Source: a virus
Taxonomy: Duplodnaviria > Heunggongvirae > Uroviricota > Caudoviricetes
IMG/VR virus record: IMGVR_UViG_3300032731_000668
Coordinates: 64,001-128,000 of that record
DNA length: 64,000 bases
Reading direction: 5' to 3' (one strand)
The notes beneath the pieces are model-generated. The model made no database searches, had not been told where the DNA came from, and worked only from the letters and a program-made list of their open reading frames with translations. Made by a program: the position numbers and the translations under genes. Below are positions 2,832 through 25,517 of the stretch, piece by piece (the first letter of the stretch is position 1; every line of letters starts with the position of its first letter).

Positions 2832-3395
2832 CACATAAAAGGAATAATGATAAATAAAAATAATGTATTTGCTTTAGTGCACTTAAATTGGGAAGGGCTT
2901 CAAATTCTTGAGCTTGGCGATAAAAAATTTATTTTAGAGAAATACTTTTGGTGGAAAGAACAACTTGCGCAATATCAAAAAGAAGATTGTGATGATTTAT
3001 GCATTATGAGTTACGGGGATGAAAACACAGTAGAATGTGTTTGTAATAGATTTGATACGTCTGTATCAAAAGTAAAAGGATTGTAAAATGAAAACATTTA
3101 TTCTTATCGAAAAAGTTATGAACGGAACAGTTACAATGGACGTAATAACAATTCTTTTTCAAACAAAAAGTTTTGAAAAAGTTGTTAGCCACATTAAAAA
3201 TAGGCTAGAAAAATTAGAAGAAGTCGAAAACGTAAGTGTTATTTATGAAAATGATAACGACAAAATATTCTCGTATAATATTTGCGACCAAACTTTTCCG
3301 ATAGCTGGACACATAGAAAATAAAGAATCAAAGATTATCAATGTATAGCACAATAAAATGAATCTTTTATTTGATTATAAAAAAGGAGAAAGAAA

Positions 3396-3881
3396 ATGAA
3401 AATTGTTTTTGGTTTATTGGTTGTGGCAATGGTTATGTTTGCTGGATGTGAAAGCCAACAGACGACTGACCAAGGAGTAGTTGTTGACTCAAAATATGAC
3501 TCTAATTTGTACACGGTTACATTAGAAGCCGATGATTTAACAAGTCATGAGAATTTTAATTTATCGGGAAGTATGTCTATGGTAAATGGTTTTGGCACAG
3601 GAAGTGTGAGTGCATGGACTGATGGCAAAGGAATTCTAAGGGGAAGGCTTTTAGATATTTCTCCCGAATTAGTTGGTTTTAGCGTTAGCGATACCATTAT
3701 TGTGAAGACAACCGATTTAAAAGTAAAAATGATAAAAGATGGAGACGTTATAATTTTGAAATGTGTTTCAGATTATGAGCCAGTTATCAGTCAAAATCAA
3801 GACACAACCGTTGCGCAACAATATGAATTGTGGGAATTAGATTATTGCCGACTTGTGAAGATCAAAAAAGCTGCAGAATGA
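3396..3881 (+). CDS. Putative lipoprotein
   Basis: Hydrophobic signal peptide ending in lipobox MFAGC; SD AAGGAG. Confidence 0.7.
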   Translation: MKIVFGLLVVAMVMFAGCESQQTTDQGVVVDSKYDSNLYTVTLEADDLTSHENFNLSGSMSMVNGFGTGSVSAWTDGKGILRGRLLDISPELVGFSVSDTIIVKTTDLKVKMIKDGDVIILKCVSDYEPVISQNQDTTVAQQYELWELDYCRLVKIKKAAE

Positions 3882-3890
3882 AAAATAAAA

Positions 3891-3920
3891 TTTTGGGTGG
3901 CGCATAAGCGCCATCCAAAA
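3891..3920. terminator. Intrinsic terminator-like hairpin
   Basis: ttttgggtggcgc-ataa-gcgccatccaaaa with T/A tracts on both sides. Confidence 0.75.
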
Positions 3921-3949
3921 CCACATAAAATGAAGGTTTTATGAGGTTT
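3917..3949. repeat. Palindrome copy AAAACCACATAAAA-tgaagg-TTTTATGAGGTTT
   Basis: Direct read; follows a terminator hairpin and precedes an SD. Confidence 0.9.
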
Positions 3950-4154
3950 AAAAAAGGAGAAATATGAAAAAATCTAAGTTCAATTTGACAGAAAAAGAAG
4001 TTGATGAATTGCTAACAAGTAGACCTAGCATGTTTAATGCAGGAATGCTTTTAGACCTAAAAAGAATGTACGATTTATTTCATTATGTTTTAAATACGCT
4101 TGAAAAAGAACATGGAATAAAATTAGAGGTTGACGGAATAAATAATTAGCACCC

Positions 4155-4183
4155 TTGACAAAATAACAATTATATGGTATTAT
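4155..4183 (+). promoter_or_regulatory. Sigma70/A promoter driving the RNA unit and the 617-aa gene
   Basis: TTGACA-N17-TATTAT with TG at 4175-4176; predicted start about 4190. Confidence 0.9.
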
Positions 4184-4189
4184 TATGTT

Positions 4190-4246
4190 GGGCAAAAGAA
4201 GTTCCTTTACAAAATTTTCTATTAAAAAATAATTTACTTCTCGCCC
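4190..4246 (+). ncRNA. UUCCUU-bulge hairpin module, copy 1
   Basis: GGGC/GCCC stem, AAA-over-C loop, AGAAG/CUUCU helix, UUCCUU bulge, UA/UA pair. Confidence 0.8.
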
Positions 4247-4250
4247 TCGT

Positions 4251-4362
4251 GGGAAAGTAGCTCAGTGGGAGAGCGTCGGCATTATTACTGTTCGCCGAAA
4301 AGCACAAACAGTTCCTTTACAATTGGAGCCGAGAGTCGTTGGTTCGAATCCAACCTTTCCTA
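4251..4362 (+). ncRNA. tRNA-like RNA with a 47-nt structured insert replacing the anticodon loop
   Basis: Acceptor GGGAAAG/CTTTCCT, D arm GCTC-agtggga-GAGC, anticodon stem TCGGC/GCCGA, T arm GTTGG-TTCGAAT-CCAAC; insert at 4281-4327. Confidence 0.88.
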
Positions 4363-4365
4363 ATA

Positions 4366-4424
4366 AATGGCAAAAGACGTTCCTTTAAAATACAATGCTA
4401 ATGTTTTACGTCTCGCCATTTTTT
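4366..4424 (+). ncRNA. UUCCUU-bulge hairpin module, copy 3, followed by U6 (terminator/attenuator-like)
   Basis: AAUGGC/GCCAUU, AAA-over-C, AGACG/CGUCU (compensatory change versus copy 1), UUCCUU bulge, UAAAA/UUUUA. Confidence 0.8.
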
Positions 4425-4443
4425 ATAAAAAACAGGAGATAAA

Positions 4444-6297
4444 ATGAATAAAGCAACTTTAAGATTGTTCAATGCTATTCAAGTAGAACGAAAAACCCAA
4501 GGTTACGGAAACGCCCACAAGAAGAGGTGTATATCTAATGGCTATATTCTCAGTCATTCTATTGATCCAAAGGAAAATACTCTAGAAGAAATTGAAAACA
4601 TTATCGGTATTTCTGGCGAGAAAGCGAATGCTTCTTTCCATAAGTCATGGAAGATTGTCCGTGATTCTGACATGGAAGTTTTGGTTATCCAACAAATTCT
4701 TCATTATTTTACTACTTATGGATTTGAATCTCTTGGTATTTATAATGAGAATACTGTTTATGTTCCCAATGAAGTTTTAAAAATTCCAAAAATCAAAGAC
4801 GGTATTTCTTTAGTGTTCATTAAGGCAATGACTTCTCAAGAAATCTTAGATGCAATATTGGTCTTGGGCGCAGGCATTGCTTTGGCAAAAACTACATTGA
4901 ACGATATAATGACTGTCGTAGAATCAAATAAATATAACAGTGATTTTGTCGAAAAAATAAACAACCGTGAATTAAAAACACGCCTTTATGAATTTTATGA
5001 TATTGTACCTGCTGAACCTGTAGAATATCTACGATATGTTATTCAGCAAATTACCAACGAGTCTTTGTTGATCAAGAATGATTATCTTATCAGTATGATT
5101 AAAGCATCGGAAGGAAAATTTCTAGATCATCTTCTAAAGAAAGCGCCAAAGGATTTAGCAAGTATTTTCTTTAGATATAAGCCTTTGTTTCTTGCAATGA
5201 AATCGATTAGTAAAAACAAGAATTTCTTTAATCGTTTACGAAAAGACGCGAATAAAATGCATATTCCTATGCCAACCGATTATCTCAACAATATTACTTC
5301 ACAAATTAAAGAAGGCAAACTAGATATAGAGAGGCTAGAACATCGATTGGTAGATGCAAGTATATTTAGGAAGATAAGACTTGCCTATGCTTTGAGCCAT
5401 CGAATTAATAGCGGAAATAGTATTGTGTATAAAGTTCGTAATGGGCGAGGATGGGTTACAGATTTTGAATGGCACAAGAATTTTGGGATGGCGACTGAAT
5501 CTGCGTTTAGTGTTGTTTTGAAATCTATTGCTGAAAATATACGAAAAAACGTAGGCGGAAAAACTTTTTATATTCCTGACAATATTCATTACGCTTTACC
5601 CTCAACGGAAAAACAATTCATTGGAAATTTGCCCTCTAACACCTATGCTACTGTTCCTAATGATATGATTATTGGAGTTCATTGGACAAATACGAATAGA
5701 AGAATCGATTTAGATTTCTCTATGATACAACAATCTGGTAAATTTGGATGGGATGCAGGATATCGTCAGGGAAACGATGTTTTATTTTCTGGTGATTTAG
5801 TAGATGCTCCTAAACCAAATGGCGCATCGGAATTGTTCTATATGTCTGAAGCACAAGAAGAAGCAAAAATTTTGATGTTAAATTATTTCAATTTTAATGC
5901 AGATGATAAAGTAGTATTTAAATTTTTTGTTGCAAATGAGAAGACAAAAAAGTTAGACAAAAATTATATGGTTAGTCCAAATAACATAATTTTATCATGT
6001 AATGTAGAAACAGATCAGAAACAAATGATTTTAGGATTAGTTGTTTCTGTAGACGGGGAAAACCGACTATATTTTTCAAATACCAGTATTGGAAATTCAA
6101 TTACGTCTGGAGCAAATGAAATATCTACAAAAGCTAGAAATTTTATGGTCGCTAGCTGTGTGGGTGCTATAAACTTAGAAATTATTTTGGCTATGGCAGG
6201 TGCAGATATTGTTTCTGAAAAACCAGAAGAAGAGTACATTGACTTATCACCCGAAGCATTGGATAAAACAACTATTATTGATTTGTTCCAAGGATAA
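4444..6297 (+). CDS. 617-aa uncharacterised protein with a possible TerD-like C-terminal domain
   Basis: Long ORF with SD AGGAG; C-terminal GVHW..RIDLDFS..GWD..LFSGDLVDAP..GASE pattern resembles TerD-like domains (pattern recall, not searched). Confidence 0.6.
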   Translation: MNKATLRLFNAIQVERKTQGYGNAHKKRCISNGYILSHSIDPKENTLEEIENIIGISGEKANASFHKSWKIVRDSDMEVLVIQQILHYFTTYGFESLGIYNENTVYVPNEVLKIPKIKDGISLVFIKAMTSQEILDAILVLGAGIALAKTTLNDIMTVVESNKYNSDFVEKINNRELKTRLYEFYDIVPAEPVEYLRYVIQQITNESLLIKNDYLISMIKASEGKFLDHLLKKAPKDLASIFFRYKPLFLAMKSISKNKNFFNRLRKDANKMHIPMPTDYLNNITSQIKEGKLDIERLEHRLVDASIFRKIRLAYALSHRINSGNSIVYKVRNGRGWVTDFEWHKNFGMATESAFSVVLKSIAENIRKNVGGKTFYIPDNIHYALPSTEKQFIGNLPSNTYATVPNDMIIGVHWTNTNRRIDLDFSMIQQSGKFGWDAGYRQGNDVLFSGDLVDAPKPNGASELFYMSEAQEEAKILMLNYFNFNADDKVVFKFFVANEKTKKLDKNYMVSPNNIILSCNVETDQKQMILGLVVSVDGENRLYFSNTSIGNSITSGANEISTKARNFMVASCVGAINLEIILAMAGADIVSEKPEEEYIDLSPEALDKTTIIDLFQG

Positions 6298-6301
6298 TAA
6301 A

Positions 6302-6547
6302 ATGTCTTGGAACTATAGAATAATTAAACAGGACGGTTGCTTTGGCATTCGAGATGTATATTATGACAAACAAGGAAGAATGCAATTAGTGGCTGTAGAA
6401 GATCAACCTCCTCATGGAACAACATTAGAGGCACTTAAAACCGATATGGGATATTTCAAAGAAGCATTTAATAAACCAGTTGTTAATTATGAAGACATTC
6501 CCGAAGATGATGCTGACATGTCTATGTATAATAGGAAGGTGGAATAA
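6302..6547 (+). CDS. Hypothetical phage protein (MSWNYRII...)
   Basis: ATG at 6302 just after the upstream stop; the longer ORF call overlaps the 617-aa gene. Confidence 0.65.
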   Translation: MSWNYRIIKQDGCFGIRDVYYDKQGRMQLVAVEDQPPHGTTLEALKTDMGYFKEAFNKPVVNYEDIPEDDADMSMYNRKVE

Positions 6548-8086
6548 AATTTTGGATTATACTCAATGTTTATTAATTAAATATGGCAATGTCATAACTA
6601 TTGGTAGACATATTAATCCATCTATTTATTTAGATTAGATAGAGTAATTAAAGGAGCTTAACATGAAAGATAGAATACAGAATGAACTTGAGAGTGCAAA
6701 TAAACAAGCCAATCTTTATAGAACCAAATGGCTTATAGCCCACAATACTTTGCACGCTCTTGTTCACGAAGAAAATCAAGAGATACAAAATAAGGATGGA
6801 GCAAAGAAATATTTTACGGAGTATCTGTGTGAATTGGAAAATGCGCCTAAGATTGCATTATTACCAGCTTAGAACATGTAAACAGATACATCGCATTTAT
6901 CTGCTTGTTCAAAGGCAGTACTATTACCACATGAGGAGATAAAAATGAAACCCAAAATCTCAATCGCACAGCAAATACTTTTACAAGCAGTCTTAATCGC
7001 AGTTGGAATATTCTTGGTAGTTAATAGTAGTCTTACAGGGGGTATAATAGGATTTGGCATGATTGGTATAGCGGCATTAGTTCCCATTATTATGCCAATG
7101 AATAAATCCAATTAATGCTCATACAATCTTGATAGAATACCAATACTACCTTTGATGGTCATTGGAATGATGGATGGATAGTTCAAGAAGTCTATAGTTC
7201 TGAAAGCGAGCAATATATTTTAAAGCACGAAAGAGATTGGGCAAAACAAAGAGAGGCAAGCGATATATGAAAAAATTTCCTGATTGGGAAGGCAAAGAGT
7301 ATGGCGGAGATTTTGCATGCGAAGATCCTACCTGTGAAGTTACTTGCGAATGTGGCCATGGATTAAACGAAAAAGGCATATTATGGGTTAGTGACTATGA
7401 GATAGTTCGTTGTCCTGAATGTGGACGTGGATATAAAACGGAGTTTGTTGTTTGGCAATTTGAGAAGGGTGAAACATAATATAATAAAACTATATGTAGT
7501 AACTATGTATCGATATGGAGATAGGCAAAAACATTCTTATATTTTGGGCGTTTGGGATACCGAAGAAGAAGCAAATTTATTTGCAAAAACAGAAGAATCC
7601 TACAGGGGATATCCTAAATATATAGCAGAAATATTACCTGTTGAATTAAATAAAGAACTTTATGGTAATGAAAAAATACAAACCTAATAAAATGAGGATA
7701 TTATGAATATCGCGGAAGTGAATACGATAAGAAAACTAAGTAGACAAGTATCTGAAAGTTCTGATGTGCGTACAATTGTCGCTGCAAGCGAACAATTAAT
7801 TGAGGCTTCGCGCAAAATTAGGGAAAGATACCAAGAAAAAGAAAATAAAAAAAATCTAAATGCACACAAAGCAATTCAAAAAATTAATGAAGTCATTGAT
7901 AATCGGTATATTCTTGGTGACTCAAAGAAATTAGATAAGATTATAGATATAGTTGGAAAATTAAATAAAGAAGAATAAATATATACAATAAAACGAGGAT
8001 TTTATGGGGTATATTTTATATACATATATTAACTCGTATGCGTTAATAACCAGATATTAAAAACACCATAATTGGAGTAAATAAAA

Positions 8087-9331
8087 ATGAATTTAAATAA
8101 AAGCTTCGCCGAAGAATTTGACAAGATTTGTCAAGAAGAAGCAACAATGATGAAAAATATAAAGAGCATAAGGAAATATATCGGAGAACTTCCTCCATTG
8201 ACTAATTTGAACGTATGCAAAAAACTTGAGGACGAACATCTGCGTATGTATGAATACACAACACTATTGGCAAATACTTATATGAAATTATCTCAACTTT
8301 ATCATTATACTAGATTAATAAATGAACAAATTTTAGACGATCAAAACATAATAAAATATTTTATCACCAAAGGAGAAAGTAATTTGAATAAAAAAATAAT
8401 AGTATTTCTTGTTGCATTTATGTTGATTGGTTGTGTTCCTACCACAAAGGTTGAAATAGCGCCAACAGAAATTATTGCAGCCCCGACAATGAAACCAACG
8501 ATAAAACCAACACCGACAATAGAACCAACCTCAATTGTAGACGACAATTATTATGGACAATTGACACCAGAACCTATAACATTAAACATATATGATCATC
8601 CATATTACTGTGATAAATTAGGTGACCCACATAAAGTAAATGGGTATTATTATAATGATCCTGATTGGATACAGTTTTGTAGACGAGAAGAATACTTTTG
8701 GATTCCAGGACTTTTAACATACGAATCTCAATTTATGAGAATGCCTGATTTAGTTATAGGAAAAGTTTATGGATATGAAGCAAATTTGATGGAACATACT
8801 GCTATGTTTCATGAATTGAACATAGACAATGTAAGAGATGGTATAACTCTTCCATTCTGTTCTGAGATTGGAGGTTACGCTTGGGTAAAGCGCCCATATA
8901 ATCCTGACATAGCTGGCACAGGAGAGTGGGAAGGGCCATTCAGAGTAGTTGATTGTGCTGGCGTATTAGACCTATATAATGTTGTTGTCAGGCGCAAAGA
9001 AGTGGCGGAGGTAGGATTTCAAACCGCTGTAGATTGGGGTATGGTGAAAGATCTAAATCAAACGGGTGAATTGACTTGGAATAAATTTTGGGATATGCGA
9101 AGCTGGTATACAGACATAATGGTATCAAAAATTGACCCAAAGTATCTACCCGATGATTTAGAACCGATTGTATTAGCGGATTGGTTTGCGGAAAGAGCAA
9201 CTTTTTATGAGACACAAGAGGAATGGGATAATGCCTATAAACCGCTACCTAAAACATTTGATCAAGTACAAAAGTGGCGATTTGAACCCAACGGTGAATG
9301 GGTGATGTTTGACTTAAACGAGATAGAATAA
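8087..9331 (+). CDS. Apparent in-frame fusion of a ~100-aa ORF and a lipoprotein starting at TTG 8384
   Basis: Internal SD GGAG plus TTG, then signal peptide MNKKIIVFLVAFMLIGC and PT-rich linker. Confidence 0.65.
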   Translation: MNLNKSFAEEFDKICQEEATMMKNIKSIRKYIGELPPLTNLNVCKKLEDEHLRMYEYTTLLANTYMKLSQLYHYTRLINEQILDDQNIIKYFITKGESNLNKKIIVFLVAFMLIGCVPTTKVEIAPTEIIAAPTMKPTIKPTPTIEPTSIVDDNYYGQLTPEPITLNIYDHPYYCDKLGDPHKVNGYYYNDPDWIQFCRREEYFWIPGLLTYESQFMRMPDLVIGKVYGYEANLMEHTAMFHELNIDNVRDGITLPFCSEIGGYAWVKRPYNPDIAGTGEWEGPFRVVDCAGVLDLYNVVVRRKEVAEVGFQTAVDWGMVKDLNQTGELTWNKFWDMRSWYTDIMVSKIDPKYLPDDLEPIVLADWFAERATFYETQEEWDNAYKPLPKTFDQVQKWRFEPNGEWVMFDLNEIE

Positions 9332-9345
9332 AAAAGGAGATAAGA

Positions 9346-9903
9346 GTGAAGAAACTATTGGTTTTTATATTGATGTTATGCATATTAATTGGATGTACCC
9401 CGAATACAGATATTGAAGTTGAAAATACGGCGTCAGAAACAGAATTATCTACGGCAGAATTGCCACGGTTTAAAGGTTTTGAATACCTTGAGGATGGTGG
9501 TTTGGCTATTTATACGCCGCCTTCGGCTGAAATCTTTTTTGTTATTGATGCCAATACGATATGGTTAGAGTCAGATCTTAGTGAACAAACACTTCTTGTG
9601 CACCGAGGAGAAGAAACGATAGATATGTTTTCTATTTCGTCTGGATTGCCGGCAACTCCAACTCCAACAGGATCATATAGGGTTTACAAAATGCAAACAG
9701 AGCATACTATGTGGTTAGATAACGTAGCGTATGATACGCCATGGATGATGTTTTTTCATCATGATTATGCAATTCATTCTGCTAATTGGCACGATAGTTT
9801 TGGCGAACCAATGAGTCTTGGTTGTATCAATATGTTTGTAGACGAAGCACGAGAAATTTATTATCAAGTTGAAATAGGAACACATATATATATTCATGAA
9901 TAA
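9346..9903 (+). CDS. L,D-transpeptidase (YkuD family) lipoprotein
   Basis: Lipobox LIGC; ISSGLPATPTPTGSY; catalytic AIHSANWH...SLGCINM. Confidence 0.88.
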   Translation: MKKLLVFILMLCILIGCTPNTDIEVENTASETELSTAELPRFKGFEYLEDGGLAIYTPPSAEIFFVIDANTIWLESDLSEQTLLVHRGEETIDMFSISSGLPATPTPTGSYRVYKMQTEHTMWLDNVAYDTPWMMFFHHDYAIHSANWHDSFGEPMSLGCINMFVDEAREIYYQVEIGTHIYIHE

Positions 9904-9935
9904 AACCAAATAAATGTATTATTTTATGTGGTTTT
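9902..9935. repeat. Palindrome copy AAAACCAAATAAAT-gtatta-TTTTATGTGGTTTT
   Basis: Direct read; overlaps the stop of the L,D-transpeptidase gene. Confidence 0.9.
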
Positions 9936-10206
9936 AAAAGGATTGCTAAATGGAAAACAAAGTTGTAAAGCTGGAGTTTGAAGAAACAAATCCATCAGAT
10001 ATTCTCGTAGCCCTGATTATTGAAAATGAAGCAGGAGAAGAAAAAGTTATAGGACATGCCACAATTCCTATTGAAAATATCGATATATCTAATAGTGGGT
10101 TTATCAATTTTGAATAAGGAAAAAGGATTGAATTTCACCGGTATACTGTTTTTCACCGAGCGGTGAAAATTTTATTTAGAGTGAAAATAACATAAAAGGA
10201 TAATTT

Positions 10207-10698
10207 ATTATATATACATTACTCGAAAGCGATTACGTAAAAACACCAGAATGGTGTGCTAAAGATATGATCTCTTGGTTTAAGCCATCGGGTCTAGTTC
10301 TTGATCCATGCAGGGGAGAGAATAAAGTTTTTTATAATAATTTATCTAATGCCGATTGGTGCGAAATAGGAGAAGGGAAAGATTTTTTTGAATATGATAA
10401 AAAAGTAGATTGGATTATAGGCAATCCACCATATTCTATATTTAGTCATTGGATTAAATACTCTTATACTATTGCAGAAAATATTGTATATTTATTACCG
10501 ACATTTAAGATATTTAATGCCTTATCATTAATGCGACTATATAGAGATAAAGGTGGCATAAAACATATTAGATTTTATGATACAGGAAAAGCAATCGAAT
10601 GGAGTAGAAGTAGACCTATTGTTGCCTGTTGGTTTCAAAAAAAATATAAAGGCGACACCTCCTACTCCTACTATGGGGAAAATAACATAAAAGGATAA
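10207..10698 (+). CDS. Small N6-adenine DNA methyltransferase-like protein (start uncertain)
   Basis: VLDPCRG motif I and IIGNPPYS motif IV; open frame extends upstream of ATG 10267 through DYVKTPEW to a stop at 10201. Confidence 0.75.
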   Translation: MIYTLLESDYVKTPEWCAKDMISWFKPSGLVLDPCRGENKVFYNNLSNADWCEIGEGKDFFEYDKKVDWIIGNPPYSIFSHWIKYSYTIAENIVYLLPTFKIFNALSLMRLYRDKGGIKHIRFYDTGKAIEWSRSRPIVACWFQKKYKGDTSYSYYGENNIKG

Positions 10699-10721
10699 TT
10701 TTATGTGGTTTTGGAGAAAAT

Positions 10722-11465
10722 TTGGGTAAATTTATAGATTTAACTGGACGAAGGTTTGGCAGATTAATTGTTATTAAGGTAGCAGATAGCAATAAATATG
10801 GAAAATACAAGTGGCTTTGCAAATGTAATTGCGGAAATGAGAAAGTTGTTAGAGGCGGCGATTTGCGTAGCGGAGATACACAATCTTGCGGATGTTTGCA
10901 AAAAGAAGTTCCTCCCTATAATTTTATCGACTTAGCTGGACAAAGTTTTGGAAAACTTGTTGTTATCGAAAGAGCAGAGAATAAAGGTAAAACTGTCCGA
11001 TGGTTGTGTAAATGTGATTGTGGCAATGAAACGATTGTTGCTAGAGGTTCTTTGCGCGGGGGGGATACAAAATCTTGTGGATGTTTACGGCACGAAGGTC
11101 TTCCAGAAGGGGAGGCATCCTTCAATAAACTTTATGGAAGCTATAAACGAAAAGCAGAAGATAGAGGTTATGACTTTAAAATAGATAAAAAATTATTTTC
11201 AAAACTAACTAAGGAAAATTGTTTCTATTGCAACACAAAGCCAGCAACTATTTTAAAAAATAAACACAATAAAGGAAACTATATTTATAACGGAATAGAT
11301 AGAGTCGATAATAAAATAGGATATGAAATAGGAAATATTGTTACTTGTTGTGAAACTTGTAATCGTGCTAAATTAGTGATGTCTAAACAAGAGTTTTTAT
11401 CTTGGGTTGAAAAAGTTTATAATCATTCTATAAAGAATAAAAAGGAGACAAATGATAGAAAATAA
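10722..11465 (+). CDS. HNH-type homing endonuclease with two N-terminal CxCxCG repeats
   Basis: TTG start; IDL.G..FG.L.V..W.C.C.CG..SCGC twice; CFYC..NGIDRVDN..GY..CCETCN..K. Confidence 0.85.
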   Translation: MGKFIDLTGRRFGRLIVIKVADSNKYGKYKWLCKCNCGNEKVVRGGDLRSGDTQSCGCLQKEVPPYNFIDLAGQSFGKLVVIERAENKGKTVRWLCKCDCGNETIVARGSLRGGDTKSCGCLRHEGLPEGEASFNKLYGSYKRKAEDRGYDFKIDKKLFSKLTKENCFYCNTKPATILKNKHNKGNYIYNGIDRVDNKIGYEIGNIVTCCETCNRAKLVMSKQEFLSWVEKVYNHSIKNKKETNDRK

Positions 11466-11835
11466 AGAGCAGTTAGACAAGGCATATAAAAAGGCATTAA
11501 TAGAATCGTTGGGTACAGATAAAGATAGGGTTATGATTGATTTGCGTTTAGATGAGGATATGCACTGCTATGGCGTATTTATTACTACGTGGAATACCGA
11601 TATAAACATTCTTTTTAATACAGCAAATTTTAAAAGAGATTTTAATAATGCACTTAGAGAAGCAACAAAATTAATGGACAATGGAGATTATGAAAAAAAG
11701 GGACATCCAATGTCTTATAATTCTTTTAGTTATGGAATATTTTTAAGTTCTAATTTTGATGATTATATGTCTAAAGAGGATAACCCTCTTGCTATAATCA
11801 GAGACGCTGGCGGAGAAATAGCAGGAGTAGAGTAA
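11452..11835 (+). CDS. Hypothetical protein
   Basis: ORF track; SD AAGGAG. Confidence 0.7.
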   Translation: MIENKEQLDKAYKKALIESLGTDKDRVMIDLRLDEDMHCYGVFITTWNTDINILFNTANFKRDFNNALREATKLMDNGDYEKKGHPMSYNSFSYGIFLSSNFDDYMSKEDNPLAIIRDAGGEIAGVE

Positions 11836-11874
11836 TACAATAAAAGGATAGTTTTATGTGGTTTAGGAGAAAAT

Positions 11875-12624
11875 TTGGGTAAATTTATTGATATAGCTGG
11901 ACAACGGTTTGGAAGATTAACTGTTATTAAAAGAGCAGAAAGACCTGAACATATAAAAAATGGCACTTATTGGTTGTGTAAGTGTGATTGTGGAAATGAG
12001 AAAGTAGTTAGAGGGTCGCACTTGAAAGATGGAACTACACAATCTTGTAGATGTATGTTAGGAGAAAATTGGAGAAACAGAATCATAGATTTAACTGGGA
12101 AAAAGTTTAATAAATTGACAGTTGTTTCTCTTCACGAAAAGAGAAAACAGAAACGAAGTAGTTCAACAAAACTTTATTGGCTTTGTAAATGTGACTGTGG
12201 AAATACAACTATATTATGTGGAGATGAAATTAAAAGCATGAATACAAAATCATGCGGGTGTTCTAGATATATTGGGAAAGGAAGAGCAACCTTAGAAAAC
12301 ACAATCATTGCTGCAACAAAACATGGCGCCAAAGCAAGAAATTTAGACTATGCACTAGAGGATAGTTTAGCTCGATTTATTATAAACCAGTCTTGTTTTT
12401 ATTGCGGGGGTTTAGACTTAAGAATAAACAGAAGTAAAAAATCTAAACCAAAATATCGTATAAACGGTATAGACCGAATAGATTCATCTAAAGGATATGA
12501 GATAGATAATGTTGTTCCTTGTTGCAAAATTTGCAACTATATAAAAATGGATATGGGACTAAAGGAATTTTTAGAACAAATAGAAAAAATTTATAATCAT
12601 TCAATAAAAAATAAGGAGAAATAA
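11875..12624 (+). CDS. HNH-type homing endonuclease, paralog of 10722..11465
   Basis: Same architecture, nearly identical 5' leader and same C-terminus (YNHSIKN). Confidence 0.85.
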   Translation: MGKFIDIAGQRFGRLTVIKRAERPEHIKNGTYWLCKCDCGNEKVVRGSHLKDGTTQSCRCMLGENWRNRIIDLTGKKFNKLTVVSLHEKRKQKRSSSTKLYWLCKCDCGNTTILCGDEIKSMNTKSCGCSRYIGKGRATLENTIIAATKHGAKARNLDYALEDSLARFIINQSCFYCGGLDLRINRSKKSKPKYRINGIDRIDSSKGYEIDNVVPCCKICNYIKMDMGLKEFLEQIEKIYNHSIKNKEK

Positions 12625-12838
12625 TGGGATGGGACGATGATGTAAGCATGGAAGGACAGTATTATGTAGATACAATAATACAACTTTTTATGGATGGTGG
12701 ACTAAGAAGGTTGCCAACTAGAGAGGAAATAATAGAATCTATTGCCAGTGTTGTTCCAGAAGACATTGAGGAATATGTGCTAAATGGTGGGTATGCAAAA
12801 ACGAAATGATAGTTAAAAAGTTTTATAATCATTCAATA

Positions 12839-12871
12839 AAAACCATATAAAAAGATAATTTTATATGGTTT
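12839..12871. repeat. Perfect palindrome copy with 5-nt spacer AAAACCATATAAAA-gataa-TTTTATATGGTTTT
   Basis: Direct read; just upstream of the -35 box at 12877. Confidence 0.9.
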
Positions 12872-12876
12872 TCTAC

Positions 12877-12905
12877 TTGACAAAAATGATTAAGTATGAT
12901 ATAAA
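12877..12905 (+). promoter_or_regulatory. Sigma70/A promoter
   Basis: TTGACA-N17-TATAAA with TG; palindrome immediately upstream. Confidence 0.85.
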
Positions 12906-12936
12906 TATATCAACCCTAAAAGAAAGGATGCCAGTT

Positions 12937-13032
12937 ATGTTGAAAGATATATGGTTCTATATCTATGAAACCGACACTGATAATGTAGATGCAGGTTTTG
13001 ATATGGATCCTCCTTGTGAAGATGGAACATAA
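12937..13032 (+). CDS. 31-aa acidic peptide MLKDIWFYIYETDTDNVDAGFDMDPPCEDGT
   Basis: Manual translation; SD AAAGGA; first ORF after the promoter. Confidence 0.6.
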   Translation: MLKDIWFYIYETDTDNVDAGFDMDPPCEDGT

Positions 13033-13080
13033 AATAAAATAGATTAAGAATAAAAAATATAAAAAGAAAGGAGACTAGAT

Positions 13081-13176
13081 ATGTTGTTAGAAGTACAATT
13101 CGGCCAATATGACGACAAAGCAGATCCTGATGATGACGAATCATCAACATGTTCGGAAGATTTTGACCCTAAATAA
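13081..13176 (+). CDS. 31-aa acidic peptide MLLEVQFGQYDDKADPDDDESSTCSEDFDPK
   Basis: Manual translation; SD AAAGGAG. Confidence 0.65.
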   Translation: MLLEVQFGQYDDKADPDDDESSTCSEDFDPK

Positions 13177-13188
13177 TTAGTTTTGACA

Positions 13189-13227
13189 CCTATAGAGATC
13201 ACAATAATCATTAGTGATCTCTATAGG
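13189..13227. repeat. Perfect 14-bp inverted repeat with 11-nt loop
   Basis: CCTATAGAGATCAC-aataatcatta-GTGATCTCTATAGG. Confidence 0.85.
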
Positions 13228-13244
13228 GTGTATAAGGAAAAATA

Positions 13245-13988
13245 ATGAGAGCAGAAAGTTCTTTTGGAAGACAAAAATATAATCTATTCAGAAATTTAGA
13301 TACTGCAACAATAATGGTAATGAGGGAATCCAATGCTATAATTGCAGGTGGTGCAGTAAGATCTGTTTTTGCTGGCGAACATATATCTGACTATGATCTT
13401 TATTTTGATAGTGAAAAAGACTTGCGAATTATGCAGGAATATTTAGATGAAAATTTTAAAAAAGTTTTTACTTCTCCAAACGCTATATCATATAAAAAAG
13501 ATAAAATATGTATTCAATTAATAATTATGCCAGAACTTATAGGATTAGGTTGTGATAAACTATTAGAAGGATTTGATTTCACAATTTGTATGGGCGCATT
13601 TAGTATGAAGGAAGACAGATTTTATCATAATGAAGATTTCTTAATAGACTTAAGCGAAAAAAGACTTGTGTTTAACATTAAGGCAAAATATCCTATGGCA
13701 TCCATGTATCGTGTTTTAAAATATATAAAGAAGGGCTATAAGATATCTGGTTTAGAGATAGTGAAAATTAGTCTATCAATACATAATTTAAAAATGAACA
13801 GCTATAAAGATCTTCGAAAACAATTAATGGGAATCGATACTCTTTTTCTAAAAGAACTTACAGACAGTCTATTATCAAAAGACAAAGATGATTTAGAGTA
13901 TGATTTTGATGATTTTATGGATATTTTTAATGGTTATTGTTATGATCAAATAAATGTGGCTTGGGGTACACATGACGAAATCATTTAA
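13245..13988 (+). CDS. Nucleotidyltransferase (poly(A) polymerase/CCA head-like)
   Basis: IAGGAVRSVF..ISDYDLYF and FDFTICM motifs. Confidence 0.78.
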   Translation: MRAESSFGRQKYNLFRNLDTATIMVMRESNAIIAGGAVRSVFAGEHISDYDLYFDSEKDLRIMQEYLDENFKKVFTSPNAISYKKDKICIQLIIMPELIGLGCDKLLEGFDFTICMGAFSMKEDRFYHNEDFLIDLSEKRLVFNIKAKYPMASMYRVLKYIKKGYKISGLEIVKISLSIHNLKMNSYKDLRKQLMGIDTLFLKELTDSLLSKDKDDLEYDFDDFMDIFNGYCYDQINVAWGTHDEII

Positions 13989-14895
13989 TCCAGAAAACTA
14001 TAGAATCTTTGAATGTTTGACGGGGAGTATTCTATATGGTACAAACACGCCAGAGTCAGACGAAGATTTTCGCGGAATTTGTCTTCCGCCCATGGAAGTA
14101 CTTTTAGATCCTTTCGTGAATTTCGAACAGAAAAATTCTGGTTTTAAAGAAGAAGATAGAACCATTTATGATCTTGGTAAATTTATGAAATTATGCGCAG
14201 GTGGAAATCCAAATATTTTGGAGCTTTTGTTTTGTCCAGAATCAAATATAGTTTATAAAACTTCCGCATGGGATAGAATAGTCGAAAATAAAAACTTATT
14301 TTTAAGTAAAAAAGTTAAATATACGTTCAGCGGTTATTCATTTTCACAATTGCAAAAAATAAAAAATCATAGGAAATGGTTCATAGATCCACCAAAAGAT
14401 AAACCTCATAGAAAAGATTTTGGTCTTACAGATAAACCAATTGTGTCTGGAATGAATTTAGAAAATTCTTTAAATATGCCAATGGAATTATTTAAGGAAA
14501 AATATGTTGATGAACTAAAAAGAGAAAGAGAATATAGGAACGAAAAAAAGAAATGGGATAATTATGTTTCATGGCGCGACAATAGAAATCCTCAACGAAA
14601 AGAATTAGAAGATAAATATTCCTATGACGCAAAACATGCATCACATCTTGTTCGATTGATGACAGAAGGTAAAGAGTTACTTTTAGATCAGACAATAACA
14701 TTTCCACTTAAAAATGCTGAAGAGATTCGTGCTATAAAAAATGGAAAATATACTTACGAAGAAATTATTGAAATGGCAGAAACATTTGACAAAGAATTCG
14801 AAGTGTGGTATGATTTATCAACGTTGCCAAATAGTCCTGATAAGAAGGGATTGAAAAAATTATATTTGGAAATAGTAGAAGAATATGCAAAATAA
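13972..14895 (+). CDS. Pol-beta-superfamily nucleotidyltransferase (RlaP/YcgL-like phage family)
   Basis: GSILYGTNTPESDEDFRGI, NPNILELLF, YDAKHASHLVRL. Confidence 0.85.
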   Translation: MTKSFNPENYRIFECLTGSILYGTNTPESDEDFRGICLPPMEVLLDPFVNFEQKNSGFKEEDRTIYDLGKFMKLCAGGNPNILELLFCPESNIVYKTSAWDRIVENKNLFLSKKVKYTFSGYSFSQLQKIKNHRKWFIDPPKDKPHRKDFGLTDKPIVSGMNLENSLNMPMELFKEKYVDELKREREYRNEKKKWDNYVSWRDNRNPQRKELEDKYSYDAKHASHLVRLMTEGKELLLDQTITFPLKNAEEIRAIKNGKYTYEEIIEMAETFDKEFEVWYDLSTLPNSPDKKGLKKLYLEIVEEYAK

Positions 14896-15487
14896 AAAAG
14901 AATTAACTGGACAAAGATTTGGCAAATTAATGGTTGTTGGCCCGTCTGAATTACGCAGTAAGAGCGGATCAATTCAATGGGAATGCCAATGTGATTGCGG
15001 GACAAAAAAATTGTATTCGTCTTACCAATTATTAAGACGAAGTGTTGTTTCATGTGGTTGCTGGCGAAAAGAAAGATTAACAACACATGGTAAAAAACAC
15101 ACGAGAATTTACGGTATTTGGGGGAATATGAAAAATCGTTGTTGTAATAAAAATAATCCGCAGTATAAAGATTATGGTGGAAGAAAAATTTATGTATGCG
15201 GAGAATGGCAAAACAGTTTTGAAACTTTTTATGATTGGAGTATGGAAAATGGTTATGCCGATAATTTATGTATTGATAGAATTGATAATAATGATAGCTA
15301 TAGCCCCGATAATTGCAGATGGACAAATAATTATGTGCAGGCAAATAATAAAAGAAATACAGTTTTTGTCACAATAAATGGAGAAACGCATTCATTACAC
15401 GAATGGTGTATAATAAAAAATAAGAATTATGGCACAGTATATAGCAGGCATTGGCGAGGGTGGAGTGATGATAAATTATTTAATTAA
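14885..15487 (+). CDS. HNH-like homing endonuclease
   Basis: CQCDCG..SCGC; MKNRC..YKDYGGRKIYVC.EW; IDRIDN..YSPDNCRW..QANN. Confidence 0.85.
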   Translation: MQNKKELTGQRFGKLMVVGPSELRSKSGSIQWECQCDCGTKKLYSSYQLLRRSVVSCGCWRKERLTTHGKKHTRIYGIWGNMKNRCCNKNNPQYKDYGGRKIYVCGEWQNSFETFYDWSMENGYADNLCIDRIDNNDSYSPDNCRWTNNYVQANNKRNTVFVTINGETHSLHEWCIIKNKNYGTVYSRHWRGWSDDKLFN

Positions 15488-16811
15488 ATTGCATCCAAAT
15501 GTAAAAAAAATATTAAATATTTTATATAAAAATAATTTTAAAGGATATATAGTTGGAGGCGCGATCCGCGACGGCCTATTAAGAAGACGTCCTGCCGATT
15601 ATGATATCTGCACCAATGCCCTTCCTGAAGATGTTATAAGGATGTTCTCTAAATATACTGTTGTACCAACTGGGTTGAAACACGGAACTGTTTCTATAAT
15701 AATTGAAGGATGTACATATGAAGTTAGCACATTTAGATCAGACGGTGATTATTCGGATAATCGTCATCCAGATAGCGTAAACTTTATTGAAGACATAGAG
15801 GAAGATTTGTCACGCAGAGATTTTACCATCAATGCTATGGCGTACAATGAAAAAGAAGGGTTGATAGATCCTTATGGCGGACAGATTGACTTAAAAAATA
15901 AAATAATAAACTGCGTCGGCGATCCAAATCTAAGAATTCAAGAAGACGCTCTTAGAATGTTAAGGGCGATTAGGTTTGCTTCACAACTTGGATTTAAGAT
16001 TGGTGATGTTTGGTTTTCAATAAAAGAAAATAAGAATCTTATTTCTAATGTATCTGCAGAAAGAATTAGAGATGAATTAAATAAAATTTTGTTATCCGAT
16101 AATTCAGAAATGATTGCGAAGTTATATCTTGTAGGACTATTAGATATTATTCTTCCTGAATTATCTGCGTGTTTTGGCGTTGATCAAAAAAATAAAAATC
16201 ATATTTATGATGTGGGTGAACATATAATTAATACAATTAAATATACACCCAACAATTTAATTTTAAGATTGTCTGCAATGTTGCACGATATAGGAAAGCC
16301 CAGAACAATGACTGTTGGACCAGATGGCGTTGGGCATTTTTATAGACATGAAGATGTGTCATGCGATATGGCTAGAGAAATTTTACAAAGACTAAAGTAT
16401 GATAATCATACAATTGAAGAAGTTTGTTTGTTGGTAAGAACTCACATGAATTCTATTCCTGCCACTAAAAGAACCGTCAGAAGATTGCTAAGTCAGATTG
16501 GCAAAGAAAGAATGATGACTTGGTGTGCATTAAAAGATGCAGATGCGAAAGCACGAAAAGAATCTAAGTATCTTTCTATGAAAAGCAAAATAGATCGAGC
16601 CATTGAATTATATAATCAAGTTATAGCCGAAGACGAATGTTTTAGTTTAAAAGATCTTGCCATAAATGGCGATGACTTAAAAAATATTGGCTATGAAGAA
16701 GGCAAAGAAATTGGGAAAGTTTTAAAATCTTGTTTAAAAATGGTTATAGAAGATGCCGAGAAAAATAATAAAGAATATTTATTAGAGTATGTAAACCAGA
16801 TAAAACGCTGA
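15468..16811 (+). CDS. cca: CCA-adding tRNA nucleotidyltransferase with HD domain
   Basis: VGGAIRD..DYDI, DLSRRDFTINAMA, EDALRMLRAIRF, VSAERIRDEL, LHDIGKP. Confidence 0.93.
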   Translation: MINYLIKLHPNVKKILNILYKNNFKGYIVGGAIRDGLLRRRPADYDICTNALPEDVIRMFSKYTVVPTGLKHGTVSIIIEGCTYEVSTFRSDGDYSDNRHPDSVNFIEDIEEDLSRRDFTINAMAYNEKEGLIDPYGGQIDLKNKIINCVGDPNLRIQEDALRMLRAIRFASQLGFKIGDVWFSIKENKNLISNVSAERIRDELNKILLSDNSEMIAKLYLVGLLDIILPELSACFGVDQKNKNHIYDVGEHIINTIKYTPNNLILRLSAMLHDIGKPRTMTVGPDGVGHFYRHEDVSCDMAREILQRLKYDNHTIEEVCLLVRTHMNSIPATKRTVRRLLSQIGKERMMTWCALKDADAKARKESKYLSMKSKIDRAIELYNQVIAEDECFSLKDLAINGDDLKNIGYEEGKEIGKVLKSCLKMVIEDAEKNNKEYLLEYVNQIKR

Positions 16812-16825
16812 TTTTATGTGGTTTT
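16793..16825. repeat. Palindrome copy AAACCAGATAAAA-cgctga-TTTTATGTGGTTTT
   Basis: CCA-enzyme ORF runs through the left arm and stops in the spacer; promoter follows. Confidence 0.9.
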
Positions 16826-16828
16826 TGC

Positions 16829-16857
16829 TTGACAAATAAGGAATAATGTGATACTAT
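16829..16857 (+). promoter_or_regulatory. Sigma70/A promoter of the MTase-nuclease pair
   Basis: TTGACA-N17-TACTAT with TG. Confidence 0.8.
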
Positions 16858-16880
16858 TTATTAACTTAAAAGGAAAATAA

Positions 16881-17822
16881 ATGACAAATAAATCTAAAAA
16901 TAAAAATCTAGGAAAAGCAAGAAACTCTAAAAATAACGAGTTCTATACCCAACTAACCGATATAGAAAAAGAATTAGGCCACTATAAAAAATATTTCAAA
17001 GGCAAAACTGTATTTTGCAATTGTGATGACCCACAAGAAAGCGATTTTTGGAAATATTTTTCACTAAATTTTGAATTTCTTGGATTAAAGAAATTAATTT
17101 CTACTCATTTTGAAAAGGCGCAGCCTTCATATAAATTAGAAATCGTAAGAGACATTAATGATGATGGAAAAATCAATAATCTTGATACAATCAAAACTCC
17201 TCTAAAACAAAACGGAGATTTTAGAAGCCCTGAATGTATTGAAATTTTGAAAGAAGCTGATATTGTAGTTACCAATCCGCCATTCAGTTTATTTAGGGAA
17301 TATGTTGCTCAATTAGTGGAATACGATAAAAATTTTATAATTATAGGGAATCAAAATGCCATAACCTATAAGGAGATTTTCAAACTTATAAAAGAAAATA
17401 AAATATGGCTGGGACATACTTCTCCAAAAAAATTTTTACAGCCCGATGGATCAATTAAAACTTTTGGCAATATTTCATGGTATACAAATCTTGAAACTCA
17501 GAAAAGACATGAAGATTTAATTCTCTATAAAAAATATTATGGTTTTGAAGATGAATATCCCAAGTACGATAATTATGATGCCATCAATTTAGATAAAGTA
17601 AAAAATATACCTATGGATTATGATGGTGCCATGGGTGTTCCAATTACATTTTTGTGTAAATACAATCCTGAGCAGTTTGAAATAATGAGTTCCAACAATA
17701 TAAGGGTGAATGACAAACTACCTTTTAAAGAACATGGGCTTATCAAAGACAAAGACGGCACAATTAATGGTAAGGCTACTTATGTCCGAATCGTAATTAA
17801 AAACCGAAAGGTATCAAAATAA
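16881..17822 (+). CDS. Adenine-specific DNA methyltransferase, EcoRI family
   Basis: NEFYT, CNCDDP..S.F..YF..NF, TNPPFSLFREY, MGVPITFL..YNPEQF. Confidence 0.9.
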   Translation: MTNKSKNKNLGKARNSKNNEFYTQLTDIEKELGHYKKYFKGKTVFCNCDDPQESDFWKYFSLNFEFLGLKKLISTHFEKAQPSYKLEIVRDINDDGKINNLDTIKTPLKQNGDFRSPECIEILKEADIVVTNPPFSLFREYVAQLVEYDKNFIIIGNQNAITYKEIFKLIKENKIWLGHTSPKKFLQPDGSIKTFGNISWYTNLETQKRHEDLILYKKYYGFEDEYPKYDNYDAINLDKVKNIPMDYDGAMGVPITFLCKYNPEQFEIMSSNNIRVNDKLPFKEHGLIKDKDGTINGKATYVRIVIKNRKVSK

Positions 17823-18904
17823 TGGAAATAAACTTAAAAGAAATACCAATCAGAGAAGTTGCTAAAGGTTATTCAAACAATCAAATTGAAGGCGTTTTTG
17901 GCTATGGTGGCAAGCTCAATATTCGACCAAAATATCAACGAGAGTTTGTTTATAAAGATAAACAAAGAGATGCTGTTGTTGAAACAATAAGAGAAGATTT
18001 CCCTTTAAATGTAATGTATTGGGCTAAAAATGAAGACGGAACATTTGGAGTAATGGATGGACAACAACGAACTATAAGCGTTTGTGAATATATAGATGGT
18101 AAATTCGCTCTCAACTATCAATATTTTCATAATCTTGAAAAGAAAGAGCAAGAACAAATTCTTGACTATAAACTTATGGTTTATTTCTGCGAAGGAGAAC
18201 CAAAAGAGAAATTAGAATGGTTCAAAATCATAAATATCGCTGGAGAGAAATTGTTTGATCAAGAATTAAGAAATGCAGTCTATACAGGAACATGGCTATC
18301 TAGCGCGAAACGACATTTTAGTAAACCTAACTGTGCTGCAAAAGATATAGGGAAAGATTATTTAATTGGTTCGGCAATTCGCCAAAGTTATTTAGAAACA
18401 GCGATTGATTGGATAAGCGACGGCAATATTAAAGAATATATGGCAACCAACCAGCATAAACCAAATGCTAACGAATTGTGGCTCTATTTTCAAAGCGTAA
18501 TTAATTGGATAAAGATGGTATTCCCTGAATATCGTAAAGAAATGAAGGGTGTGCCTTATGGCTTCTTATATAATGAATTCAAAGACAATGAATTTGATTC
18601 AAATAAAATAGAAGAAGAAATAAGCAAATTAATGCGAGATGAAGATGTAACAAAAAAGAGTGGTATTTACTCGTATGTTTTAACTCAAAAAGAGAAATAC
18701 CTAAATATTCGTGCTTTTAGTGATAGTCAAAAACGAGAAACATACGAAAGACAAAAAGGAACTTGTATTAAGTGCGGCAAACATTTTGAATTAGATGAAA
18801 TGGAAGCTGATCATATTGATCCTTGGAATAAAGGCGGAAAAACAATTGCAAAAAATTGCCAAATGTTATGTAAAGAAGACAATCGAAGAAAATCTGGAAA
18901 ATAA
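17822..18904 (+). CDS. DUF262 (GmrS-like) plus C-terminal HNH nuclease; likely restriction partner
   Basis: YQREFVY, DGQQRT, F.IIN..G..L; C-terminal CIKC..MEADHI.PW.KGGKT..NCQMLC..DN. Confidence 0.88.
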   Translation: MEINLKEIPIREVAKGYSNNQIEGVFGYGGKLNIRPKYQREFVYKDKQRDAVVETIREDFPLNVMYWAKNEDGTFGVMDGQQRTISVCEYIDGKFALNYQYFHNLEKKEQEQILDYKLMVYFCEGEPKEKLEWFKIINIAGEKLFDQELRNAVYTGTWLSSAKRHFSKPNCAAKDIGKDYLIGSAIRQSYLETAIDWISDGNIKEYMATNQHKPNANELWLYFQSVINWIKMVFPEYRKEMKGVPYGFLYNEFKDNEFDSNKIEEEISKLMRDEDVTKKSGIYSYVLTQKEKYLNIRAFSDSQKRETYERQKGTCIKCGKHFELDEMEADHIDPWNKGGKTIAKNCQMLCKEDNRRKSGK

Positions 18905-19217
18905 AAACCACATAAAATGTTGATTTTATAGGAGATTATAATGGATGAATTATTTGTAGTGCGACTTTATGATGGGTTTGATAACTTGTGGATGGATGTT
19001 TCAGAGCCAGTCAATAAAGTTGAAGCAGAAAAAATTTTGAATGAAAAAACGAAGGATGGAACAAAAAATACTAAATATGCAGACATTGATTATTATTGTA
19101 TTTTTCCCGCCGATACAAAGATGATGTTTTCGGTACCAAGATAATATATAATAAAGTATATATTATGGCATATCTTTGGGCTTAATATAACAAAAGGTAT
19201 ATATTATCGAGAGACAA

Positions 19218-19300
19218 GGATGCGATGCCCGACTGGAAGGGCGTCGGACTGTAACTCCGGTATTCGATTGAGTATGTGAGTTCGAACCTCACCGCATCCA
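19218..19300 (+). tRNA. tRNA-Tyr(GTA), no encoded CCA
   Basis: GGATGCG/CGCATCC, D arm GCCC/GGGC, loop CT-GTA-AC, long variable arm, T arm GTGAG-TTCGAAC-CTCAC. Confidence 0.93.
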
Positions 19301-19301
19301 C

Positions 19302-19330
19302 TTGACAAAAATTAGATTGTGTGGTATAAA
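19302..19330 (+). promoter_or_regulatory. Sigma70/A promoter driving a non-coding tract
   Basis: TTGACA-N17-TATAAA with TG. Confidence 0.85.
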
Positions 19331-19355
19331 TATACAGAACATTAACAAAGCGAAT

Positions 19356-19523
19356 ACTGGTCAAATTTCTTGGTAATTGGCAAATGGGTGAAATAATACA
19401 TCCACAGTCAACCAGTTTAGCAAATGATTGAGGTGTGACCTATTGTAATTGCAAGAATATCGGTTGGGCTTAGAGCGATAAAGGCTTGTCTGGTCTGAAA
19501 ACTACTGAACCGAACCTCAATCA
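19356..19523 (+). ncRNA. Candidate structured ncRNA(s)
   Basis: ACTGGT/ACCAGT enclosing TGGGTG/CATCCA; TGATTGAGGT(19425-34)/ACCTCAATCA(19514-23) stacked on TCGGTT/AACCGA; no plausible ORF. Confidence 0.6.
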
Positions 19524-19528
19524 AACAT

Positions 19529-19635
19529 GGGCAGGCGGTGTGGCAGGGAACACACAAATAAAGTACTTCTGTTACTCGGCAAACAATTTGCTCGGTCTCA
19601 ATACAGACGATCAGGTTCGAATCCTGACCTACCCA
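19529..19635 (+). ncRNA. tRNA-like RNA with enlarged anticodon arm and long variable arm
   Basis: GGGCAGG/CCTACCC, D arm GTGT/ACAC, CAAAT/ATTTG enclosing 26 nt, T arm TCAGG-TTCGAAT-CCTGA. Confidence 0.75.
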
Positions 19636-19655
19636 ATAATAAAAGGAGAAACAGA

Positions 19656-25516: not shown

Positions 25517-25517
25517 A

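Follow-up and report, generated by a model that had tools for sequence, protein, structure and literature searches.

The palindromic sites that punctuate the genome of a large, freshwater, SPβ/Tsamsa-like phage very probably serve as points at which related phages exchange genes. The stretch analyzed here (the window, 64,000 nucleotides) corresponds to positions 64001-128000 of a phage record of 168,212 bp with 32% GC, which was matched in freshwater and viral metagenomes. The site family is the palindrome ATAAAA-N6-TTTTAT, and the six central nucleotides (the spacer) differ from site to site. Sequence identity between related phages breaks off at these sites, the spacer is retained whichever side changes, the spacers follow one another in a conserved order, and neighboring spacers are alike more often than expected. 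The sites appear to be fixed crossover points with individual spacer addresses, which would work like the pdif/xrs sites of Acinetobacter. We assign a probability of about 0.62 to the reading that a tyrosine recombinase with spacer matching acts at them. The evidence from breakpoints, spacer retention, and order is comparative and was obtained from sequences.

The 168-kb genome contains 55 perfect copies of the palindrome and, including imperfect ones, about 58 sites between genes, each with its own 6-nt spacer. The spacing of six is specific, because inverted arms at this distance were counted in 55 perfect copies genome-wide, compared with 0-3 at spacings of 3-5 and 7-10. Inverted arms around a fixed centre of 6-8 bp are the geometry of an Xer/dif-type core site. 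Nearly all perfect copies sit at gene junctions, and a site is present at 50 of the 216 plus-arm junctions (about a quarter). Most sites are placed between a stop codon and a ribosome-binding site, away from promoters; 10 of the 58 are near a TTGACA (−35 box), and several directly adjoin it. At 60 sites, the TAA of the left arm is the stop codon of an open reading frame (ORF). All 58 spacers are mutually different, and pairs agreeing at five or more of the six positions are depleted (22 vs. 33 expected, p=0.03). TAAAA-N6-TTTTA was also counted in SPβ (34), phi3T (30), and Tsamsa (23). The array is undescribed in the literature searched, SPβ papers included, most of the subscription literature being outside this search. 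Some sites (window 7687, genome 55261 and 133016) double as translation starts, with a GGAG-type spacer as the Shine-Dalgarno sequence and TTTTAT plus G giving the ATG. The presence of T at the first spacer position is anticorrelated with that of A at the sixth (18 sites with both, 18 with T only, 21 with A only, 1 with neither; p=0.0004), which was replicated in other contigs, and in nearly every site of the genome at least one arm is 7 bp long; the anticorrelation may set the order of cleavage. Some site pairs are only 22-43 bp apart, with no gene between them and unlike spacers (L258 152/181, L268 378/421, G001 75525/75547; L numbers denote individual loci).

A general comparison covered about 400 sites. 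Where only the upstream gene was shared, the spacer was kept (at least 5/6) in 8 of 13 groups, and where only the downstream gene was shared, in 12 of 18; unrelated site pairs had a 6/6 spacer in 0.2% of cases. Retention in both directions suggests crossing at matched spacers, since a one-sided break would preserve the spacer in one direction only. In eight comparisons of contigs of at least 95% identity, the two sequences part at a shared site with an identical spacer or just beyond it, four times within 2-4 nt of the left arm. By contig comparison, the breakpoints are thus located at identical-spacer sites whichever side changes, as for a crossover guided by homologous centres at an Xer/dif core site. 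A 220-nt module running from site to site was 100% identical in three contigs with different neighbors. Spacers identical to one in this genome were found for 58 of 186 spacers of other contigs (9.5 expected), and consecutive matches were in the same order in 25 of 31 cases; a scan of the genome against contigs gave only single matches, in eight contigs. The right halves of SPβ and phi3T have about 18 spacers in common, arranged in the same order, and at some of these both flanks have changed. Of 49 ends of alignments between the two phages, 10 lie near sites (about 3% expected), and shared blocks whose flanks differ on both sides can measure only about 16-20 bp (TGCATA, TATTCC, TTCAAT, and GTTTTA).

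The exchange was followed in detail at one slot of the window, which lies between the outer spacers GTATTA and AGATAA. The features of this locus (window 9346-12905) and of the array are as follows.

1269..63658, no strand: array including the four locus sites A to D; 26 perfect cores in the window, 55 in the genome
9346..9903, plus strand: YkuD (L,D-transpeptidase) gene, conserved left anchor of the slot (Pfam YkuD, E=1.7e-18)
9910..9927, no strand: outer left site, spacer GTATTA, one left-arm mismatch
9950..10117, plus strand: ORF of 55 amino acids, cargo; absent at this place in L260, L258, and L131
10150..10175, no strand: 8-bp inverted repeat, then an orphan right arm TTTTAT (10170-10175), by its sequence a probable remnant of another site
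10183..10206, plus strand: first copy of a 24-bp repeat (9 nt of left flank, left arm, GGATAA, TTT), site A; core start 10192, spacer GGATAA, right arm one T short
10207..10698, plus strand: small DNA methyltransferase (MTase; PHROG 799, E=2e-21; 316 homologues)
10678..10704, plus strand: second copy of the 24-bp repeat and complete site B (core 10687-10704, spacer GGATAA)
10722..11465, plus strand: HNH-type endonuclease 1, 247 amino acids, CxCG repeats (PHROG 374, E=3.5e-46)
11452..11835, plus strand: ORF of 127 amino acids, cargo, no known family
11840..11857, no strand: site C, spacer GGATAG; begins a 125-nt stretch 82% identical to that from site B
11875..12624, plus strand: HNH-type endonuclease 2, 249 amino acids, paralogue of endonuclease 1 (PHROG 374, E=3.4e-40)
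12624..12809, plus strand: ORF of 61 amino acids, cargo
12815..12846, plus strand: remnant of an HNH gene 3' end, adjoining site D
12839..12872, no strand: site D, outer right site, perfect 14-bp arms, spacer AGATAA, core 12847-12864
12877..12905, plus strand: sigma-70-like promoter directly 3' of site D, TTGACA 30 nt from the core start; retained in L260 and L131

In the window, the slot holds six ORFs and three extra GGATAx sites, whereas relatives have one unrelated gene between the outer spacers. YkuD homologues (60-69%) precede the slot in L258, L260, and L263/L264, and in L131 by DNA match. GTATTA follows the YkuD gene in L131, L258/259, L260/261, and L262 with differing downstream genes, and also heads L135. 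AGATAA is preceded by four different upstream genes in L131, L258, L260, and L264 and followed by two different downstream sequences. The slot reads GTATTA, 50-amino-acid ORF, AGATAA, promoter, and a homologue of window gene 13245 in L260; GTATTA, 80-amino-acid ORF, AGATAA, and then another gene in L258; and GTATTA, truncated HNH gene, AGATAA, and promoter in L131; in L264, a different HNH gene leads into AGATAA. The outer portions of the arms vary among these relatives, and the spacers GTATTA and AGATAA are constant. Accessory genes are therefore swapped between sites with distinct centres, as in pdif/xrs modules. L135 has GTATTA, other cargo, and then GGATGA with an HNH gene, so a GGATxx address exists in a relative, too. 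A homologue of the gene at window 600-947 also occupies the GTATTA slot in L135, at a place other than in this genome, so cargo can change its slot. Close by, a perfect 14-bp inverted repeat with an 11-nt loop (window 13189-13227) precedes the gene at 13245.

An earlier note on this DNA, made from the sequence alone, had proposed that cassettes were inserted at the sites and that the spacers drifted later. Recombination junctions, the reduced alleles of L260, L258, and L131, and extra sites with 5/6 spacer matches at L207/L245 (see below) agree with insertion at sites, but mostly it is the cargo between two different, fixed spacers that is exchanged. The note suggested looking for relatives with a single empty site; these three alleles are reduced and have their cargo between two different spacers. 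Later drift is a poor fit, since phages that are 70-85% alike often have the same spacer at orthologous sites, yet the excess among neighbors lies at 4/6. The 24-bp repeat around the MTase was cited in the note as a footprint of site-specific integration. It indeed occurs exactly twice, at 10183 and 10678 only, identically, and is among only about ten repeats of at least 24 nt in the genome. A contig from a second study spans 8920-11756 without any difference, so the repeat is not an obvious assembly artefact, although the run behind this contig may itself have yielded the DNA analyzed here. A clean footprint is contradicted by the 9 bp of left flank outside the arm, which reciprocal integration would not duplicate. 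Three of the four spacers reported were read correctly (GGATAA, GGATAA, and GGATAG for A, B, and C); that of D had been mis-parsed as GATAA and is the 6-nt AGATAA. The upstream site at 9910 (GTATTA), a 4/6 match to site B, had been overlooked. Sites B and C each head a paralogous HNH gene with a homologous leader, and their spacer likeness is attributed to paralogy because 125 nt of this leader are common to both.

The homology of the MTase begins at about 10207, where homologues have a start codon and the window copy has ATT; the first ATG is at 10267. The reading passes through the arm of site B, and the stop codon falls in its spacer. Translation of the MTase may begin at a rare start, the spacer serving as Shine-Dalgarno sequence, or the gene may be truncated. 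In L248 (one contig, depth 4), the A-run of the MTase at window 10637 is one A shorter and the C-terminus is shifted, which may be an error. The homologues in L246, L249, and L268 have sites on both sides and stop on the left-arm TAA, and their flanking spacers match each other at only 3/6, 2/6, and 3/6; those in L084-L086 and L247 are not bounded by sites.

The likeness of neighboring spacers, which the earlier note had inferred from the four consecutive sites and six other adjacent pairs, was examined by the permutation test it proposed. All six pairs match at 4/6, one of them (27373 and 27670) consisting of degenerate sites, and the likeness exceeds the background: perfect sites gave 15 pairs of at least 4/6 (6.25 expected, p=0.001), and 13 (6.0 expected, p=0.004) without sites B and C. 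Of the 45 neighbor pairs in this genome, 14 matched at 4/6 or better (5.1 expected); outside the window alone, the number was not significant (6 vs. 4.1). The excess was replicated in 25 other contigs, dereplicated against this genome, with spacers shuffled within each contig (19 of 87 pairs vs. 10.7, p=0.002). A pooled cross-contig permutation was set aside in favor of this shuffling, because it was confounded and flanks also looked enriched. Arm-proximal flanks in the 25 contigs showed no clear excess (left 6-mer mean p=0.05, others not significant), and SPβ and phi3T carry the array with no neighbor likeness. The excess lies at 4/6, with almost none at 6/6, and concerns only about one pair in ten to one in five. 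It is real, modest, and secondary to the role of the sites as crossover points. For a half-site model with 3 bp of the spacer matched, the first three positions were identical in excess, but so were middle and alternate triplets. Duplication of whole sites as a general rule was rejected, because flank likeness failed to track spacer likeness.

How neighbors may come to resemble each other is suggested by individual loci. L207 and L245 agree at 98-100% identity as far as a left arm and then diverge; in L207, TGATGT comes next, and in L245, TAATGT with a broken right arm is followed by a gene, TGATAT, another gene, and TGATGT. The extra sites of L245 match at 5/6 and lie to the left of the resident TGATGT site. 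The window locus is built alike: the crippled site A comes first, B and C follow, and AGATAA lies to their right. L206 carries TCCACA in place of the window's TCCGCC, gene, and TCCACA. The MTase would accordingly have been captured with duplication of a resident site rather than by clean reciprocal integration, and the lost T in site A would have stabilized this state. At L232 (1001/1423), two perfect neighboring sites, both TAGTTC, surround a 404-nt unit, a candidate excisable cassette.

Three proteins of the phage are relevant to the mechanism.

Genome 131525-132544, minus strand, outside the window: 339-amino-acid YomM-like tyrosine recombinase
Genome 54174-55091, plus strand, outside the window: second tyrosine recombinase, 305 amino acids (L001), own promoter
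Window 31130..32110, plus strand: AAA_24 (Sak4-like) protein (PF13479 above cut-off, E=2.8e-14)

The late arm carries RuvC, the 339-amino-acid recombinase, and a 1272-amino-acid gene read as the tape-measure gene. In Bacillus phage Tsamsa and Lactococcus phage 949, a homologue of the recombinase lies immediately 5' of the tape-measure gene, and yomM of SPβ matches it with 29% over 171 amino acids. Both recombinases are intact, the larger one retaining R171, K204, H279, R282, W305, and Y314. Enzyme and array agree in all six complete viral records, in that the three richest in sites match the recombinase and the three without enrichment do not, and they also occur together in SPβ, phi3T, and Tsamsa, but not in phage 949. 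The 339-amino-acid enzyme scored below every Xer family cut-off and had no PDB match; as integron integrases, the two recombinases reached 86.5 and 19.2 bits against the TIGR02249 cut-off of 265. The smaller one best matched the archaeal XerA model, below cut-off, and has a 72% homologue in L181. It was rejected as the cognate enzyme, since viral contigs contained no close relatives of it and neither SPβ nor phi3T gave a match, and is probably accessory. The chances that the YomM-like enzyme specifically is the recombinase of the sites are about even. The RuvC gene lies directly upstream of the tyrosine recombinase (genome 131525-133017, L002) and starts inside a site; RuvC could resolve junctions stalled by mismatched spacers. 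RecA, ERF, and RecT were searched for in the phage and not found. The genome begins with short tandem repeats of a 17-nt unit and closes with others whose unit is about 29 nt; these may be real termini or assembly ends.

Each palindrome would thus be the dif-like core site of a single tyrosine recombinase, most likely the YomM-like one encoded before the tape-measure gene. The arms would be bound by the enzyme, and the 6-bp centre would be the overlap, in which a full or near match is required. The different centre of each site would block recombination within one genome, whereas co-infecting relatives would cross over at equivalent sites, two crossovers swapping the intervening gene block. 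New sites would arise when DNA is occasionally captured at a resident site with a full or near spacer match, the resident site staying on one side. The extra copy would persist if it is different or crippled, as are site A and the left site of L245, and neighbor likeness would follow. A wider proposal, which we advance tentatively and at slightly less than even odds, is that SPβ/Tsamsa-like phages possess a self-encoded, genome-wide exchange with one core recombinase and dozens of incompatible addresses, new ones being acquired by capture at near-matching pseudo-sites as at the MTase and L245.

Several observations weigh against recombination by such an enzyme. About 40% of the one-sided groups lose the spacer, and spacer conservation above that of the shared flank is borderline (11 of 29 vs. 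6.9, p=0.06). The remaining breaks are ordinary junctions at ribosome-binding sites or starts, or places where one contig alone has a site, and the metagenome loci were retrieved by the motif itself, which biases toward breakpoints near sites. The 24-bp repeat reaches 9 bp beyond the arm. No site-to-site deletion, circle, or empty allele was found in four runs over window 3000-22900, in contigs only, which drop rare forms. Two of the three co-occurrence matches are weak (26-28%), and phage 949 has the recombinase in the same place with no array, its dyad with 6-bp spacing not being enriched (7 vs. 3 in the control). Finally, the phage has a Sak4-like protein and RuvC. The main rival is accordingly homologous recombination at linkers: the palindromes would be binding sites kept for regulation or DNA organization and would act as passive homology linkers for Sak4/RecA-type recombination, the spacer merely lengthening the match, as in the PeSLs of T4 (PMC2839356). 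This precedent, the AAA_24 gene, the flank included in the 24-bp repeat and in several breakpoints, and the likeness of right flanks of neighbors in this genome (positions 7-12, p=0.001) speak for it. We consider it unlikely, because the blocks shared by SPβ and phi3T with both flanks different are so short, the unit contains no promoter (10 of 58 sites near TTGACA, where a PeSL has a promoter and stem-loop per unit), and the fixed 6-bp dif-like geometry and the co-occurring recombinase would be left unexplained.

The integration model of the earlier note, in which each cargo gene is a circle integrated at one site as in integrons, with the spacer duplicated exactly and the copies drifting, accounts for the replicated neighbor excess, the 6/6 pairs of A/B and L232, the two extra 5/6 sites beside TGATGT in L245, site-bounded MTase homologues, and the many ORFs that stop on the left-arm TAA. 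It is nevertheless improbable as the general mechanism: the excess is confined to a minority of pairs and mostly to 4/6, cargo is swapped between two different spacers, the spacers flanking MTase homologues agree at only 3/6, 2/6, and 3/6, SPβ and phi3T lack neighbor likeness, an SPβ insert is flanked by TTGAAG/AGACTG, and no circles were seen in the assembled contigs, which drop rare forms. Lower still is the probability that the sites are pure operators of a dimeric repressor, possibly with an integrase fold like MrpR/SroF, and that local duplication made them alike. Perfect dyads, sites adjoining a −35 box, and the integrase-fold repressors known in SPβ-like phages (PMC10516654, 10.1101/2025.11.27.690993) are in its favor, but most sites lie off promoters, the catalytic residues are kept in both recombinases, and of seven MrpR-bound promoter regions placeable in SPβ only aimR has a perfect site. 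Breakpoints at sites and two-sided spacer retention are not predicted by operators and largely refute them. That the sites are RNA stem-loops for processing or translational control is hardly credible. Pairing of the arms over 6-14 bp would leave a 6-nt loop close to ribosome-binding sites, and some spacers supply a Shine-Dalgarno sequence, but an RNA stem is excluded because the arms of one site do not covary: outer arms pair no better than those of shuffled partners (3.32 vs. 3.27 of 8, p=0.26).

Phage mosaicism is usually ascribed to illegitimate or relaxed homologous recombination. Botstein's modular theory assumed built-in linkers between modules, of which few concrete cases have been described so far. 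The linkers proposed here are visible, individually addressed, and ordered, and since they are present in the model phages SPβ and phi3T, the enzyme and its rules are testable in Bacillus subtilis. The MTase locus adds how addresses may be born and locked. If one recombinase does act on the array, genome engineering would gain dozens of naturally occurring sites for it that are incompatible with each other.

Among known systems, the array most resembles in function the pdif/xrs and dif modules of Acinetobacter Rep_3 plasmids, which are recombined by XerC/XerD (PMC11705084, PMC6449649). In both, several sites with a variable 6-bp centre flank accessory genes, flanking pairs have different centres and therefore do not excise, and exchange occurs between replicons at related centres; xrs pairs show no excision and recombine between plasmids only if their centres are closely related (PMC11705084). 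The phage sites differ in the replicon, in 20-60 sites per genome in conserved order, in symmetric arms (one enzyme) with the core TAAAA-N6-TTTTA instead of the XerC/XerD arms ATAA-N6-TTAT, and in an enzyme that is probably phage-encoded rather than host XerCD. XerH/difH is similar in its 11-bp arms ending in AAAA, its asymmetric 6-bp centre, and the size of its recombinase. The difH arm ends in GAAAA, these inner five bases being read where the phage has TAAAA, and the centre is touched only at the backbone (PMC5357621, PMC5241119). However, difH is present as one chromosomal site, next to xerH, and serves to resolve dimers, and the phage enzyme is below the Xer cut-offs. The PeSLs of T4-type phages likewise recur between genes and mark places where genes were inserted, deleted, or replaced among related phages (PMC2839356, PMC4122927), but consist of a promoter and a stem-loop with crossovers in variable zones, whereas the phage sites are 18-30-bp dyads with no built-in promoter and a position-specific centre. 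Integrons (IntI, attC cassettes) share the single-gene, mostly promoterless units between sites and the stop codons often inside the site; the array has no long folded attC with covarying arms and no attI or single insertion point, and instead consists of double-stranded dyads with order-specific addresses. MrpR/SroF and the SPBRE of SPβ belong to the same phage group and combine an integrase fold with dispersed intergenic sites (PMC10516654), but MrpR lacks catalytic activity and has about ten promoter boxes as its binding targets, while the 34 SPβ dyads are mostly elsewhere and the phage recombinases are intact. The array is thus not an integron, PeSL, or SPBRE system; it works like pdif/xrs modules, yet its symmetric non-XerCD arms place it outside that family.

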